NCBI GenBank assembly: GCA_965197745.1
Contig: CBDANS010000006.1
Span: 1,248,001 to 1,312,000 of the forward strand
Length of the DNA: 64,000 bases
Origin: Opitutales bacterium
GTDB lineage: Bacteria; Verrucomicrobiota; Verrucomicrobiia; Opitutales; PNEW01
Direction of reading: 5' to 3'
The position numbers are program-made. The first letter of the stretch is position 1; every line of letters begins with the position of its first letter. Of this stretch, positions 21,001 to 39,000 are shown piece by piece.

Positions 21001-24000
21001 GATTTTATATCACTCGAGTCACCCATTTAATTAATCAGGTTGTGTGTTGATTCTATATAATTGTGTTTCTAATCGCAGATTTTACCGAAATAAACATTGG
21101 CATCGAATTCTATCGACACAACTTAAATATATTAATTGTTTTTTGATATGCGGTTACAACTTTATCTTAAGTAAATTTAAGTTAATAACATGCTTAGCTA
21201 TAGTCTGTTAAAAACATTTCATCTTACAGGAATCTTTCTTTTTTTGACGGCCCTATCGATACTGTTTTTCTCCGATAAATATAGCCGTCTTTTTAAAGTA
21301 ATTTCTCATGTGTCATTGCTCGTTATTTTGATTACCGGATTGGGATCGGTTGTCCATTTAAGTATTGGAGTACCGCCATGGGTGATAGGAAAATTTATAC
21401 TTTGGCTTGTATTATCCTTTGCCGGGATTTTTGCAGCCACGAAGTTGAGAAAGTATCGCTTAACGGCTTATATCATACTAATATTTCTCGCTTCCACTGC
21501 CGCCTTCCTCGCGGTCCATAAACCATTTTGAATTTGGAACTCAGGAACTGGGTGTTTGCATTTAAAATACAGGGTATAAAAAGAAGGTGCGCCTTTTTTA
21601 TAATAATCCAGGTGGACGCGACAACACGCGTCCCTCCGGAATAAAGTATAGTGGGAGGGCCACGCGTCGTCGTGGCCGTATAAAAATAATGGACTGTCTG
21701 TACACACCGTTTTTCCCGGTCATGCTGCATCCCCGACAACTCAACTTCAACTACCCTGAGTTCCAAATTTAAATTACGTCGTTAATCGTTAATTCTTAAA
21801 TACACTCAATAAATCAATTTTGGTGTGATAAATGCGTAAGTTCCTGTAAGATGTCATCGGGTGTCCATTCATTTCCCTTGTAGATCTTAATCAGTATACC
21901 CGAGGCGTCGATAATAACGGTTCTCAAGTTGTGCGTAATGTCCACTGCCTCACCACCGTCCTGAATGATCGTGAATCCAAATTGTTCAGCGAAATTTATG
22001 ATACTTTCACGATCACCGGTAAGAAAATTCCAAAACGCATAGTCCGCCTGCAATGCGTCACCGTGTTTTTTCAGCACTTCAGGGGTATCGAAGACGGGAT
22101 CTAAACTGATCGATAATAATTTTGTTTTATGACTTAAGTCTCCAGCTTTCTTGAATTCTTCCTGCAATGTATTGAAGTGAAGATCCATGAGAGGACAAAA
22201 ATTGGGTAAGGGGCAACGGGTATAAGTAAAAGTTAGAATAAGATTATTACCTCGAAAGTCCCCTAATTTACGTGAGTGATTATCCTGGTCAATAAAGGTT
22301 GCGTTGGGAATGACATCGCCTTTCTTGAGTAGCGGGACGCCGCTTGTAGGATGCTTCAAGGGTTCAATGCTGATGGGCTCATCGAAACCGGTTTTTACGA
22401 GATCCGTGAGGTAGGCTTCTTTTTGTGTCACTACAAGTTTGGCCTCAATAATGTCCCCGGGCATTCTTCCCTCAAGTAAGGTGACATCTTTAACTTTAAA
22501 AGGCATGGTCATGGCGGGCATGAAGCCTGGTATTTCTTCATGTCTAATCGTGATTTCATTATTCAAAGAATAAATGGAAATTACCTGACCGCGCAGATCG
22601 TAGATGACTTCTCTAGGGGCGGGACGGCAGGATATACAGAGGGCGAAGAGGATAATTATCGAAATAAATAAGCGATGCGTAGATAGCATTATAATAAATC
22701 GACTAACCCGGGAGGAAGCGCTGTTCCCCGCGCGATTAGCAATAAAAATTCTATTCAGTGGGTGCTGAGGGACCAGCCGTTATTATGCAAATTATCAAAT
22801 ATCACTGGACTCGCTTAACGGCGTAAATAACAGTTTTACATCGGGATCGGGGTGGGGGATTGCTGAAAGCAGCATGCGGGTGTAAGCGTGCTGCGGATTT
22901 TCAAAAATAGTTTCTGTATCTTCTATTTCTACAAGTTTTCCCCGATGCATAACGGCAACGCGGTTGCTTATATGTCGCACTACGCTGAGGTCGTGAGCGA
23001 CAAAAATATAGGTTAAATTTAATTCTTCCTGAAGGTCTTCAAGCAAATTAATTACCTGGGCTTGCACCGAAACATCTAGCGCTGATACTGCTTCATCGGC
23101 GACCACTAATGAAGGGCGCATGATGAGAGCGCGAGCAATGCCGATCCGTTGTCGTTGACCACCACTGAATGCATGGGGATAACGTTGCCGGTGTTCCGGT
23201 TTCATTCCCACTTTGACGAGCATATCATCAACGCGATCGATCAATTCCTTGCCCTTGGCCAATTTATGGATAAGCAATGGTTCACCCACTATATCTCCTA
23301 CTGTCATCCGTGGGTTGAGGGAGGAAAAAGGATCTTGAAAGATCATTTGCATTTGGGTGCGCAAAGGTTTGAGTTCACTTTCCGTTAATTTAACTAAATT
23401 GATCGTTTTTCCGTTGGTTCTGAAAAGAGCTTCCCCGCTTGTCGGTATGAGTGCGCGCAGAAGGGTTCGCGCACAGGTGGTTTTACCTGACCCACTCTCG
23501 CCAACCAACCCGAGTGTTTCCCCGGGATTGAGCTTGAAACTGACATCGTCGACAGCCTTAACAACATCTATCTGTTTTCTTCCAAAACCCTGGCTGTAAA
23601 CCGGAAAATGTTTACTGAAATGGGTTACTTCGAGTAAAGGTTCTATAGTCCTGTCATTCATACGCTGGTTGACTCCTTATAATTTCTCACACCGCAGCAG
23701 GCTACCTGACGACCATTGGGCAAGGTCTCCATGACCGGGTTATCTCCTACGTCACAGATGCCGGGAATCGAGTCCGGACAACGCGGGTGAAAGGGGCACC
23801 CCGTAGGTAGATGGGTCAGTGATGGCACGTTGCCCATAATCGAGGATAGCCGAGCCTGTTTCGTTTCATTTCTTGGCAACGACTTTAAAAGCCCAGCGGT
23901 ATAGGGGTGGAGGGGGTCTTTTAAGACTTCACGTACCGAAGCCTGTTCGACCAGTCTCCCCAAGTACATAACCGCGACGTCATCAGCAATCTGTGCTACA

Positions 24001-36000: not shown

Positions 36001-39000
36001 GGTTACCGGATTATCGGGAACGATCAAATGGTTGAGATTAGGATAGATGAGATAACGTGAACGGGTTGCTGGAAACCAATGATAAACTTCATAATCTCCA
36101 TTATCACGTTCTGACATCAGCAAAGTGTAATGGAGATCCATGACAAAAATTTGAAAGGTAATGGCTCCACTTGCTGCGGCTATAGATATAAGCTGCTGGT
36201 TTTTTATTTCGAAATGTAATCGGTCCACATAAGGCAGTTGATTGCCCTCAGTGTCGACAGCCCAATAGTAGGGGTTGCGCACAAATACCTGGGGTGGGTT
36301 GGCTTTGTAGCTGCGATAAATCCAGGGCCAAAGCCGTGGATGTTCAGGGTTGTTCCATTTTTGCAACACCGCATATAAGCTTTTTCGCGAGGGAAGCCTT
36401 CTTTCTTCCAGGGCAGCCTCGATAAGCGTGTCATCACCAAGTTGCGGGTGGTATTTTTCAAGATAATGTCGGGGCGAGCAAAAAGCCCAGGCTCGAGCCA
36501 GGCGTTCAAGAAACGTTCCATAGGATTGAGGGAAAACGAACTTTATGGTGTGATCATCGATTTTGATTATTTCCCCATGTTTCCCACCCACGCTCATCCA
36601 GTCTGGCAGTGTACTCTCGAATAAATCAGAATTAATCTCGTAGTTCCACCAATAGAGGATATCAGCAGCGGTCAAAGGATGACCATCGGACCACTTCATG
36701 CCTCTTCGCAGGTAAAAGGTCCATTCTTTCAAGTCGGAACTGGATTCCCAACTCCTGGCTATGTGCGGCACGATCGGATAACCGAACGGAGACCAGCGAA
36801 CCAGGGTAGAACCAGATTTAAAGCCTTGTATGATATCTATTTCAGACCGAGATCCATACACCCGGAACCAGGTGCCCCCGTATTTGCCGATACCATCCAC
36901 CCCCTTGAGCACCACCGGTTCTGTCCCTGCACGCTCAACCACGTTTGGTAGTTTGCCTTCATTCACCAGTTCACTAAGAATGGGCGATTCACCTTTGGGA
37001 TACCATCGAGCGGATTCTCTCTCACTGTAGTCGACATCCTCTTGTATTTTGAAAAGATCATCCTCGGTAAAACTGACGTCCCGTAATTTTTTCGTATAAT
37101 CCATCACCCCCTCACTATAGTGAAGGGGTTCTTTCTCCAGATCCGGTTTTAAAATATCGCCCCAAATATAAAGAAATCCGAATAAAACACAGCCGGTAAG
37201 AACGATGTACCCAGGAAAGGCGAATTTTTTTCTCATGCTATTTATTTTTTAAACCACGAATTAACGCACCAGGGCTTCAACCGTCGACCAGCAGTCGTAT
37301 GTGTAGACAACGCCTCACCTGCGGCCACACTCCACACGAATGCGAGAGTCGAGGGGCATGAATTTTACCGGTGTGTAATCGTTATCATCATTCCTTAAAA
37401 TAGTGTTGAAACGCTTCTTCGTAATCGGCGGGCGTATCAATATCGGTAATTAACCCGGGATCATCGCAAGGGATAGTGGAGATAATTTCTTTGTAGTCAT
37501 TTAGGGCTTCTCTCAAGTTAGTATGACTTTTTGAAGTTATCTTCTCCACAATTTGAAATGGTAGGATAACCGGATGTCTGCGCCTGCTCTCGTATTCGGG
37601 TTGACAAATATTCTTCGGGTTTTGCCTGGAGTGAGCTATTAAATCGCAAATTGATTTTTCCCGTATTTGCGGTTGATCGCCGAGGGCGACCGCCAGATGA
37701 GATACATTGGATTGCCAACCGTCCCATTGGAATCCGCAAAGGACAGAACTGAACATTTCAGGCGTTGCCTGTGGATTTAAAATTCGATTTTTCTCCGGCC
37801 ATTCCAGGCGGTCGAGTTCGTTGATAACATTTTTATCAACACTACTGCTTACGACCGCGACTTGAGTTGCATCTACTTTTTTATACAAGCGCAAAAGATG
37901 ACCCAACATGGAGGTATCACCCCATGGCAGTAACAATTTGGGTTTCCCCATGCGAAGCGAAGCGCCTCCGGCGAGAATGATTACACCCAGGTGAAAGTTG
38001 TTCGATGGTTTAGTAATGACTTCCAGACCAATCCTTTTACCTGATTAATCTCCGCTGGTAATAGTTACGAGCGGGTAACTGATCAACTTGATTTTACTTC
38101 GGAAGGGAGATTTTTCAATCGCATATGATTGCCGGAAGCTTTGCGCTGAACTTTTAAAATCTCTCCGATCACACTCACTGCAATTTCTGCTGGCGAATCA
38201 GCGCAAATGTCGAGGCCAATGGGGGCGTAGATTCTTTCAAGGTCTGCGGGATTGGCGCCCTCTGCAACCAGTTCTTCGTGAACGCGATGAACTTTGCGAT
38301 TACTGCCAATCATCCCAATATAACCGATGCTATGATGGGGGAGTAAGGCGCGCAATGCTTCTTTATCGATCATGTAATTGCGGCTGACGATCACGATCGA
38401 ATCAGAAGGCTGCCACCTTTCTTTCCCAAATACCTCTTGTGCTGATTCTTCACTAATACGTTTATCAGCGTGAGGATAATATTGGTCACTTAACAATTCA
38501 GCGCGGTCATCAATGACCGTGACATGTAGTCCACAGTCATGGGCTAAACGTGCAATTGCCTGAGAACAGTGACCTGCGCCTACAAGGAGAAGCCGTGAGG
38601 CGAGCTTCTGCGGTTCAATCAACACCGTTAATTCGCCACCGCAAATAGCGCCGAAAGAATCCGGTTCATTTTCGCGTAGGGTATATTTTTTTAATAGGGG
38701 TTCGCCGTTTGCGTTTATAGCGTTAATCGATTCTTCGATAACCAGTGATTCAAATTTTCCTCCACCTACGGTACCGGATATTTTCCCGTCACTGTATACA
38801 ATCATTTTAGAACCCGGCTCCCTGGGCACCGATCCTTTGACAGAAGCAACGGTAACTAAAGCACAGTTTTCTCTATTTTTACGTGCTTGAAGGAATTCCT
38901 CCATGATCGACTCGGACATACCTTATTAGTCTTATCACCTTGGCGCGAAGGTCAAGACTGTAGCCGAGGCGTAGCTTAAGCAAATCGCTTACTAAATAGA

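Follow-up and report, generated by a model that had tools for sequence, protein, structure and literature searches.

How one OppC-OppD-OppF set might serve many copies of its missing permease half is the question raised by a locus of an Opitutales bacterium, analysed here in a 64,000-nt stretch of its genome (the window). ORF calling and Pfam place three tandem genes, in which a binding protein is fused to an OppB-type permease, on the minus strand ahead of OppC, OppD, and OppF (Table 1), with 2 nt between the stop of fusion A and the OppC start. An earlier note on this DNA had counted four fusion genes in the tandem set, one truncated and one cut by an insertion sequence; however, the two ORFs between fusions A and C (29242–31509 and 31883–33847) correspond in tblastn to family residues 340–1094 and 1–341, respectively, and are therefore the halves of one gene, B, split by an IS1595-family element. 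The N-terminal half covers SBP_bac_5 profile positions 2–155 and then runs on in frame into the transposase, where Pfam detects IS1595 domains, and the C-terminal half carries the rest of the binding domain, the extra helix, and the OppB permease. The element is found by blastn in five genomic copies of at least 99.6% identity.

Table 1. Features of the fusion–OppCDF locus (positions within the 64,000-nt window)
Feature	Position	Strand	Description and evidence
Fusion gene C	33952..37236	-	1094 aa; first in tandem set; PF00496 8.1e-51, PF00528 4.2e-25 (Pfam)
Fusion gene C, parts in order	33952..37236	-	Anchor helix, family-5 binding domain, extra helix, OppB permease
Fusion gene B, N-terminal part	32826..33847 (boundary approximate)	-	Residues 1 to ~341 (tblastn); breakpoint from blastn against gene C
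IS1595-family element	31510..32825 (ends approximate within a few bases)	-	~1316 bp; PF12762 7.8e-35, PF12760
Fusion gene B, C-terminal part	29242..31509	-	Residues 340-1094, 78% identity (tblastn); Pfam
Fusion gene A (P0001)	25872..29156	-	1094 aa; PF00496 6.4e-51, PF00528 8.7e-25 (Pfam)
OppC-type permease	24694..25869	-	391 aa; PF00528 and PF12911 (OppC_N)
OppD-type ATPase	23658..24743	-	361 aa; PF00005 and PF08352
OppF-type ATPase	22795..23661	-	288 aa; PF00005 and partial PF08352

The architecture described earlier—anchor, binding protein, extra helix, and OppB on one polypeptide—is borne out by the ORFs, Pfam, hydropathy, and an AlphaFold2 model of fusion A (pLDDT 80.3, pTM 0.79, with a low-confidence linker at ~710–730). 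In this protein SBP_bac_5 (155–559) and BPD_transp_1 (881–1088) lie in the same ORF, and hydropathy and the model agree on an anchor helix at ~2–29, an extra helix at 728–750, and the usual OppB start at 753–778. The binding domain is of family 5 (cluster C), with full-length matches to the solved binding proteins 5ipw (1.2e-83) and SPH1118 (7ver, 1.6e-71), and the permease is of the OppB type, with a weak PF19300 match and a match to DppB of 8z1v (2.2e-23) over residues 754–1089; the second permease, OppC, and the two ATPases with an oligo_HPY C-terminal region are separate proteins. In place of the free binding-protein gene of the Opp/Dpp family, binding domain and OppB share one open frame in seven copies here, as they do in all 120 best-matching database proteins listed. 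The N-terminus would lie inside the cell, followed by a signal-anchor helix, the periplasmic binding domain, and a flexible linker, and the extra helix would bring the chain back to the cytoplasm before a complete six-helix OppB-type permease. Such a topology agrees with hydropathy and with the positive-inside pattern, seen in an N-terminal MKK and in RHPYIGRR past the extra helix. Across 42 paralogs, invariance is 72% in TM5, 67% in TM6, and 51% in the coupling loop, as against 20% in the binding domain, 5% in the extra helix, and 0% in the anchor helix.

Whole-genome tblastn recovered 10 fusion loci—seven intact, one cut by the insertion sequence, and two decayed—together with a single cognate OppC. 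Five of the intact copies stand alone (C7:155577, C7:754890, C7:758534, C7:1492867, and C7:1502875), and no OppC, OppD, or OppF homologs were found near them by genome tblastn or by Pfam analysis of neighbouring genes. The earlier count of five lone copies thus holds for intact genes, but it missed the decayed copies at C6:1123465–1126744 (a frameshift and a TAA) and C5:506962–509561 (at the end of its contig and interrupted by several stops and frameshifts). Over 21 pairs of paralogs, identity is 0.66 (0.54–0.84) in the binding domain and 0.83 (0.75–0.95) in the permease part, reproducing the earlier values.

A surplus of fusions over a single OppC-OppD-OppF set recurs in two sister genomes: against the seven intact fusions here, G001 has 18 (and one with a stop) and G002 has 16 of full length (and three broken), each with one cognate OppC. 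Within the operon itself, one OppC is preceded by two or three fusions. In a sample of 301 genomes of the phylum, 17 carry a full-length fusion (E<=1e-200), and these 17 are also the ones with the cognate OppC type (E<=1e-125); neither was found at these thresholds in the other 284; the thresholds were set after the score gap had been seen, two fusion candidates were scored per genome, and related genomes are not independent. The cognate OppC type was also present in all 20 fusion-bearing genomes examined, at 92–93% identity within the bacterium's own family and 58–72% outside it, across orders and other phyla. In two further genomes an OppC-OppD-OppF trio lacking OppB lies on a different contig from the sole fusion gene (G081) or from a lone fusion (G290, which has one full operon besides). 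Among 71 fusion genes with a complete C-terminus (from 77 loci), 47 are directly followed by OppC and three by another fusion, 18 stand alone, and three cannot be judged. The commonest layout elsewhere—in Verrucomicrobiota, Planctomycetota, Armatimonadota, and others—is a single fusion-OppC-OppD-OppF operon.

In a tree of 45 copies, each paralog clade holds orthologs from this genome, G001, and G002, with the copy number here below that of its relatives. Among 14 ortholog pairs (12 lone and two operon-linked), NG86 dN/dS was 0.07–0.26 overall and 0.04–0.13 in the OppB part; by these ratios, purifying selection acts on the lone copies in the binding domain and the permease alike. Synonymous divergence is very uneven inside single ortholog pairs—between copy G and its counterpart in G002, dS falls from 0.63 over the first 80 codons to 0.03 across the binding domain—suggesting recombination between paralogs. 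Copy D is 97–98.6% identical in three genomes, in unrelated genomic contexts, the similarity stopping ~145 bp upstream (97% identity in this accompanying DNA) and 35 bp downstream of the gene; the syntenic background around the OppCDF operon is ~66–83% identical between this genome and a related MAG record. The family evolves through duplication, loss, and gene-sized horizontal exchange, and, with three of the 10 loci here broken, part of the turnover is neutral decay.

The earlier note had proposed that interchangeable permease halves with tethered receptors serve a single OppCDF core, and copy numbers, co-occurrence, the unlinked cases, and selection support the proposal. Within the membrane, any one fusion protein would join the only cognate OppC, together with OppD and OppF as ATPases, to form a type I ABC importer carrying just one tethered receptor, and the paralogs, operon-borne and scattered, would compete as alternative specificity halves for the shared OppC-OppD-OppF. 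Taken as a whole, the best explanation, which we judge from the comparative data to be probable, would be receptor::half-channel fusions around one shared OppCDF core, with a cargo likelier to be glycan than peptide. Complex prediction pairing OppC with a lone copy's permease part scored 0.50 (best of three controls, 0.00), with run agreement of at least 88% and a partner pLDDT of at least 69; of 157 solved complexes 116 reach the 0.50 mark, as do 2 of 215 mismatched pairs, and by this calibration a score up to 0.60 is a weak pass. Since similar OppBC/DppBC complexes have been solved (8z1v, 8j5q), the score may reflect likeness to these rather than binding by this copy. By invariant columns, the permease part, TM5 and TM6 especially, is also the more conserved between phyla in which each fusion has its own OppC; this is thus what one expects of the family in general, and it does not tell the alternatives apart.

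The uneven synonymous divergence, together with a promoter scan that gave nothing above chance and a search that turned up no RNA run, might instead point to a reservoir, the scattered copies being mostly silent and supplying cassettes for the binding domain and the permease that enter the expressed site in the operon by recombination or conversion. We regard this as unlikely: in three genomes the lone copies are still of full length, with start and anchor intact, dN/dS is low in both domains, and copy D carries its own upstream DNA. Furthermore, the lone fusion of G081 and of G290 is the only possible OppB partner of the OppB-less trio, and unlinked copies must therefore be expressed there. 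It is extremely improbable that the lone copies are functionless duplicates heading for decay, since seven frames of 1094 aa are unbroken, orthologs persist in different species with dN/dS well below 1, and near-identical copies recently exchanged between genomes have been kept intact; the loci broken here (one by the insertion sequence and two by multiple disruptions), the broken copies in G001 and G002, and the lower copy number here than in relatives would all fit such decay.

The lone fusions could also bypass this OppCDF and pair loosely with the OppC and ATPases of unfused Opp-type operons. Besides the cognate set, the genome has four OppC genes and two OppD/OppF pairs that could in principle serve, and two of these operons are without ATPase genes, so that some cross-operon sharing of parts must already occur. 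However, each of these OppC genes adjoins its own unfused OppB, as stated earlier and borne out by tblastn and Pfam of the neighbours, and is 37–46% identical to the cognate OppC, the type that co-occurs with the fusion and is conserved across orders and phyla; such pairing is thus improbable. Action without any OppC, either as homodimeric permeases with another ATPase or as non-transporting, membrane-anchored ligand sensors, would explain why no partner gene lies alongside the lone copies, and the related free binding protein SPH1118 is described, in excerpted literature, as serving chemotaxis as well as uptake. This is nevertheless very unlikely, the permease part (coupling loop and TM5/TM6) being the most conserved and showing the lowest dN/dS, which a sensor would not need; Pfam found no signalling domain in the locus genes or lone-copy neighbours, and the cognate OppC type accompanies the fusion in all 20 genomes mentioned above.

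As to the cargo of the proposed shared-core importer, the nearest solved binding proteins, namely 5ipw, the pectin-binding SPH1118, and an alpha-galactoside binder (1.7e-32), bind oligosaccharides, and peptides are for this reason not the likeliest substrate. From these distant homologs and the mixed neighbouring genes, oligosaccharides or other glycan fragments appear more likely; the name "Opp" refers to the family and is no proof of a peptide substrate.

In textbook accounts, type I ABC importers vary specificity by exchanging their soluble receptors or by duplicating entire operons. If the fusions share one OppCDF, a third way would be to swap receptor and half-channel together on a fixed partner half and motor. 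A full-text literature search found no paper describing this fusion. OppABCDF/DppABCDF importers, including DppBCDF (8z1v) and the Rv1283c complex (8j5q), have the same domain families and B-C-D-F gene order; their binding protein is free, whereas here it shares one polypeptide with OppB, to which an N-terminal anchor helix and a further helix ahead of TM1 are added, many OppB-type halves exist per OppC, and the substrate is probably not peptides.

OpuA and GlnPQ come from other ABC families; their binding domains are small, and they have two identical permease subunits and two or four receptors per complex. As in these systems, the binding domain here is covalently tethered to the transmembrane domain in one polypeptide; unlike in them, a ~620-aa family-5 domain is joined to one half of a heterodimeric permease, so that one receptor per complex is expected, and the fused gene has been multiplied. 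Pfam detected family 5 alone rather than OpuAC or family-3 domains, and a distinct OppC follows and co-occurs in place of a homodimeric permease. GlnPQ and OpuA are described in excerpts of PMC8025302 and PMC11065425, and an excerpt of PMC3971661 states that a binding domain is fused to the transmembrane domain of an ABC importer "in some cases".

Several free receptors share one translocator in the case of DppA1-A5 of P. aeruginosa, OppA1-5 of Borrelia, and HisJ/LAO (excerpts of PMC4206461, PMC5736914, and PMC3971661), an arrangement called "relatively rare" in the last of these. There, too, one membrane and ATPase core serves receptors of differing specificity, but the soluble receptor alone is swapped; here the swapped unit would include the half-channel, and the complex must therefore assemble anew for each specificity. 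With multitask ATPases of the MsiK/MsmK type, one locus energises several transporters encoded elsewhere, according to an excerpt of PMC7658222. Those transporters keep a private permease pair and share the ATPase, whereas here the permease half OppC would be shared as well.

The same logic of scattered specificity genes and one shared energising module is found in group II ECF importers, in which many small scattered S-component genes plug into one EcfAA'T module. However, the two systems are not homologous, their folds are unrelated, S components function without a binding protein, and no ECF T or S Pfam family was found in the locus genes or their neighbours. ECF importers are also mentioned in the excerpted PMC3971661. 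A tentative but quite possible reading is that each fusion gene works as a plug-in specificity module, complete in one gene and open to horizontal exchange, on a conserved OppC-OppD-OppF chassis. With receptor and half-channel in one gene and the chassis-facing helices nearly invariant, a new copy could confer an uptake specificity at once; if so, this would be a type I ABC counterpart to the ECF S-component principle, with no further gene needed.

A shared OppCDF would bear on the assembly and subunit exchange of heterodimeric permeases and on the permease's own part in substrate selection. Polysaccharide-degrading Verrucomicrobiota and Planctomycetota are not known to have SusCD-type systems, and the arrangement would bear on how these bacteria widen uptake at low genetic cost. 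For annotation, a lone ~1090-aa "ABC permease/substrate-binding protein" may be a functioning component of an operon elsewhere in the genome. The fusion family is large, with thousands of database proteins, and its cultured hosts include Fontivita pretiosa and Horticoccus, making it directly testable.

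The three fusion genes in the window, each encoding an anchor helix, a family-5 binding domain (SBP_bac_5), an extra helix, and an OppB permease in one polypeptide, form a single minus-strand gene row with one OppC, one OppD, and one OppF gene, in the order fusion C, fusion B, fusion A, OppC, OppD, and OppF. Fusion A ends 2 nt before OppC, overlaps are present at OppC/OppD and OppD/OppF, and the C–B and B–A intergenic gaps are ~100 and ~85 nt, respectively. A scan of positions 22000–38200 gave 16 promoter-like sites (26.1 expected) and 18 terminator-like sites (15.7 expected), counts that do not bear on the presence of separate promoters for the tandem genes. 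A search of sequencing runs for lone copy D listed no RNA run carrying it. Pfam analysis of A and C confirmed the report of the earlier note that a binding domain and an OppB permease reside on one protein. That note had placed two separate genes, one truncated and one cut by an insertion sequence, between A and C; tblastn showed instead that the two ORFs, corresponding to family residues 1–341 and 340–1094, are halves of one gene, and thus that the tandem set comprises three genes, two of them intact. An IS1595 element of ~1316 bp lies between the halves of fusion B, with the transposase in frame with the N-terminal half. Since the genome contains five nearly identical copies of the element, the disruption of fusion B looks recent, and the element itself looks to have been recently active. 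The operon is preceded by Moco-related genes, immediately upstream of which a 1458-aa protein containing eight PATR (passenger-associated transport) repeats is encoded.

Coordinates of the fusion operon and of related features in the genome of origin (plain numbers count from the start of the window; C, contig; L, locus)
Feature	Position	Strand	Remarks
Whole gene row	37236 to 22795	-	
Fusion C	33952-37236	-	intact, 1094 aa; SBP_bac_5 (E ~1e-50), BPD_transp_1 (E ~1e-25) (Pfam)
Fusion B	29242-33847	-	interrupted by IS1595 element
Fusion A	25872-29156	-	intact, 1094 aa; SBP_bac_5 (E ~1e-50), BPD_transp_1 (E ~1e-25) (Pfam)
OppC	24694-25869	-	OppC_N, BPD_transp_1 (Pfam)
OppD	23658-24743	-	ABC_tran, oligo_HPY (Pfam)
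OppF	22795-23661	-	ABC_tran, oligo_HPY (Pfam)
PATR-repeat protein	39012-43388	-	Pfam
IS1595-family element, five copies	31510-32825; C6:407658-408973; C7:503507-504822; C7:1207675-1209000; C7:1779823-1781136		>=99.6% identity
Lone fusion	C7:155577-158861		intact (tblastn)
Tandem pair outside operon	C7:754890-758174, C7:758534-761818		intact (tblastn)
Lone fusion (copy G)	C7:1492867-1496154		intact (tblastn)
Lone fusion	C7:1502875-1506159		intact (tblastn)
Decayed fusion	C6:1123465-1126744		frameshift near start, TAA
Decayed fusion	C5:506962-509561		at contig end; several stops and frameshifts
Near-identical fusion pairs	L004:8433-11896 vs L127, L128; L006:8879-12159 vs L130; L005:6866-10176 vs L129		96-98.6% identity
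Repeated gene order, C5 end	C5:495000-509561 (L001)		
Repeated gene order, C7 island	C7:1484000-1503999 (L006)		
PhyH-type genes	L006:7704-8555, 12276-13064; L007:8152-9027; L002:6137-6946, 11958-12740; L001:10759-11613		
Rejected "eleventh fusion"	C6:1385600-1388440		35% identity, single tblastn match
Junction in nearest unfused relative	C6:1387442-1387453 (L003:9443-9454)		
Unfused SBP-OppB-OppC operons	C6:1385396-1389585 (L003:7397-11586); C7:1944122-1947685 (L010:4123-7686)		
Free binding proteins	L007:4834-6858, 9764-11806; C6:686637-688466, 689303-691132		
Free binding proteins (continued)	C6:560564-562363; C6:1172530-1173945; C7:1306323-1308125, 1309526-1311346		

Translation and hydropathy showed a basic N-terminus (MKK...), a hydrophobic helix at ~6–29, and an acidic stretch, followed by the binding domain (~81–707), a variable linker, a second hydrophobic helix (732–750), and a basic turn, RHPYIGRR (751–758), after which an ordinary OppB start (LLILIPTLL...QLPPG) leads into six helices. 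The positive-inside rule places the binding domain in the periplasm, with the extra helix bringing the chain back to the cytoplasm, the usual starting side of OppB. The AlphaFold2 model (63 sequences; pLDDT 80.3, pTM 0.79) contains helices at 2–29, 728–749, and 753–778; its confidence is good in the binding domain and low in the linker (~710–730). The turn H752-P753...R758 is invariant across the 63 sequences, which span several phyla. A lipobox-like LTGC occurs within the first helix of several paralogs; because its Cys is absent in copies E and F and the motif is not kept between phyla, this helix is read as a membrane anchor.

Searching the 7 contigs (4.45 Mb) of the genome by tblastn with protein A and its parts revealed five intact fusions outside the operon (1094–1095 aa each), as the earlier note had listed, together with two decayed copies absent from its count. 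No permease or ABC ATPase was detected by Pfam among ORFs of at least 90 aa around the lone copies, in keeping with the earlier description of them. The genome contains five OppC homologs—one after fusion A and four each after an unfused OppB—and tblastn and Pfam analysis of the neighbours agree with the earlier account of these four. The previous identity figures were also reproduced: over the 21 pairs of the seven intact copies, identity is 0.66 (0.54–0.84) for the binding domain and 0.83 (0.75–0.95) for the OppB part.

The proposal that one OppC-OppD-OppF core serves interchangeable fused receptor–OppB halves is supported by concordant comparative evidence, namely copy numbers, co-occurrence, split cases, retention, and selection. 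Two sister genomes contain, respectively, 18 fusions without stops plus one with a TAA (G001, one contig) and 16 full-length fusions plus three truncated or split ones (G002), and each has one OppC of the cognate type (that following fusion A), 92–93% identical and directly downstream of a tandem pair of fusions, with 50% identity for the next best OppC. In an even sample of 301 genomes across the phylum, with two candidates per genome scored for the fusion, a full-length fusion (E<=1e-200) was found in 17, including the source genome, and the OppC (E<=1e-125) in exactly those 17, the cut-offs having been chosen after the score gap was seen and related genomes not being independent. In another genome of the phylum, G081, the sole fusion gene is alone on one contig and an OppC-OppD-OppF trio is on another, where the 6.4 kb upstream of the trio contain no OppB-like gene; G290 has one full operon and one such split pair of a lone fusion and an OppB-less trio. 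An OppB-less trio makes sense only if a distant fusion provides the OppB half.

A FastTree tree was built from 45 copies of at least 1000 aa; with three outgroup fusions as the root, the 42 family copies all fall into one clade (support 99). Most paralog clades contain one G001 and one G002 ortholog, and six also contain a copy from the source genome, indicating that the duplications are older than these species. By the Nei-Gojobori method, dN/dS was 0.07–0.26 overall and 0.04–0.13 in the OppB part among 14 ortholog pairs, 12 of them lone copies and 2 operon-linked. A permease half under such selection would need a partner half and ATPases. Four other explanations can be considered: that the scattered copies are a silent cassette reservoir, that lone fusions use other OppC proteins or ATPases, that they have partner-free roles, or that they are decaying. 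The chief counterweight to all four is the pair of split cases in G081 and G290 together with the low dN/dS of the permease part.

Invariant columns among the 42 paralogs amount to 72% in TM5, 67% in TM6, 51% in the coupling loop, and 75% in the RHPYIGRR turn, as against 0% in the anchor helix, 20% in the binding domain, 3% in the linker, and 5% in the extra helix. This conservation of the parts that would face the core fits a common partner; however, the same columns are invariant between phyla, so the pattern is not discriminating, and TM5/TM6 conservation was dropped as proof of a shared partner. Complex prediction of OppC with residues 725–1094 of lone copy E gave weak support, with a score of 0.50 (best of three controls, 0.00). 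Of 157 solved complexes, 116 attained that mark, and of 215 mismatched pairs, 2 did so; only 18 of these solved complexes, but both of these mismatches, passed at 0.60 or below. Between runs, at least 88% of contacts coincide, and the partner pLDDT is at least 69. Because like complexes have been solved (8z1v, 8j5q), the prediction shows likeness more than binding.

We infer that each fusion would insert with its binding domain in the periplasm, fixed by helices on both sides, and that its OppB core would pair with the single OppC, with OppD and OppF docking on the coupling loops. The tethered binding domain would then hand over ligand in cis, giving each complex one receptor of fixed specificity, and the specificities of the cell would be set by which fusion genes are expressed, with one OppCDF pool used by all.

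Group II ECF transporters are known to use a shared module. Among fusions of a binding domain to a permease, those found as studied in the literature surveyed are OpuA and GlnPQ. Both are homodimeric and belong to other ABC families. Such fusions are stated to occur "in some cases," and several free binding proteins on one translocator to be "relatively rare," in one review (PMC3971661); examples of the latter (PMC4206461, PMC5736914) and of shared importer ATPases (PMC7658222) are described in others. Full-text searches, as judged by the titles and abstracts listed and by PMC3971661 and PMC8461474, brought up no family-5 binding protein::OppB fusion, extending the similar outcome of the earlier, narrower search, and no exchange of permease halves; subscription journals and TCDB lie outside this scope, so that an earlier description is possible. 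The comparative evidence supports a type I importer of the Opp family whose receptor is tethered to one permease half; that half is present in several copies, for which there is only one partner half and one motor.

With regard to distribution, 6978 proteins matched at E<=1e-10 among 8000 candidates scored. The best 120 matches, besides the query's own cluster, are mostly 1060–1125 aa long (four are shorter, 869–1059 aa), and 119 contain both PF00496 and PF00528, bearing out the "nearly all" of the earlier note; P0073 (869 aa) has PF00496 only. Databases contain thousands of fusion proteins under generic names. With one genome taken per species, 499 stretches encode a fusion relative, and the 77 loci retained belong to Opitutales, Chthoniobacterales, Phycisphaerae/Tepidisphaerales, other Planctomycetota, Abditibacteriaceae/Armatimonadota, Kiritimatiellia, Lentisphaerae/Victivallales, and Hydrogenedentota, with Fontivita pretiosa and a Horticoccus strain as cultured hosts. 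These loci include 71 fusion genes whose C-terminus is complete. OppC follows directly in 47 of them, usually then with OppD and OppF. Another fusion gene is next in three, three are unjudgeable, and 18 are lone, having 2.5 kb or more of DNA downstream: 11 from two records related to the source genome and seven from other Opitutales-type lineages. These records may overlap with the genomes compared above, so that the two samples are not independent. From these counts, a single fusion-OppC-OppD-OppF operon is the ancestral state, and it is in this bacterium's family that the fusion has multiplied.

For lone copy D, DNA identity to the G001 and G002 copies is 97.3% and 96.8%, respectively; the matching stretch takes in the gene with ~145 bp before it and ~35 bp after it, and nothing else in 20 kb of flank is similar. 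Between themselves, those two copies share 98.6% identity, again in unrelated contexts. Syntenic DNA around the operon is ~66–83% identical between the source genome and a related record. Copies G and E are 97% and 96% identical to their counterparts, with the flanks of G at 67–87%; for E, the adjoining TPR-protein gene is also 94.6% identical to that in G002, so the similar block there is larger than one gene. Values of dS are 0.05–0.14 for D, G, and E and 0.72–0.85 for C and F. Copy D adjoins transposase fragments and an integrase gene in the source genome. Further gene-sized islands of 92–97% identity lie close to the G001 copy, indicating that such exchange is general in these genomes and not peculiar to fusions; horizontal transfer of gene-sized pieces seems to be common in the family. 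The data nevertheless show that a fusion gene is able to move by itself and remain intact, as would fit a part working with a resident core. In eight aligned copies (250 bp upstream, 150 bp downstream), no conserved flank and no common recombination site was found. Within one ortholog gene pair, dS varies up to 20-fold between segments; for copy G against L111 it is 0.63 in the first 80 codons and 0.03 in the binding domain, suggesting recombination or gene conversion between paralogs. The C5 end repeats the gene order of a C7 island (BNR protein, cyclase-like protein, Ig_7 protein, PhyH, and fusion gene, the last decayed on C5); either this segment is duplicated, or the assembly breaks at a repeat here.

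The binding domain matches end to end 5ipw (putative "oligopeptide-binding," 633 aa; 1.2e-83), SPH1118 (1.6e-71), and an alpha-galactoside-binding protein (1.7e-32); with classical peptide binders, the match is confined to a short stretch. SPH1118 is described in two papers as a pectin-binding protein serving chemotaxis and assimilation. Around lone copies lie BNR/sialidase-like proteins, DUF4838, GFO/IDH/MocA, and ThuA-like genes, repeated ~740-aa Ig_7 proteins, PhyH-type dioxygenases, a Zn-peptidase, and unrelated genes. With modest confidence, the cargo is proposed to be oligosaccharides or glycan-derived compounds. PhyH-type (phytanoyl-CoA dioxygenase family) genes, co-located with the repeated Ig_7 and BNR/sialidase-like genes, flank several lone or decayed fusions on one or both sides, a neighbourhood that may point to the substrate class.

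A candidate eleventh fusion was rejected as separate SBP and OppB genes with a TGA between them. In this nearest unfused relative, a 682-aa binding protein and OppB lie in the same frame, separated only by the TGA and two codons before ATG ATG; it is not counted as a fusion because it lacks the extra helix, and it shows how near the two frames can be. Two unfused SBP-OppB-OppC operons have no adjoining OppD/OppF, and the genome totals five OppC genes versus three OppD/OppF pairs, so ATPases are probably common to several operons too. About eight free family-5 binding proteins (~675–690 aa; 28–34% identical to the fused domain) have no adjoining permease gene, so the genome seems to have the classical arrangement as well, in which many free receptors serve one translocator.
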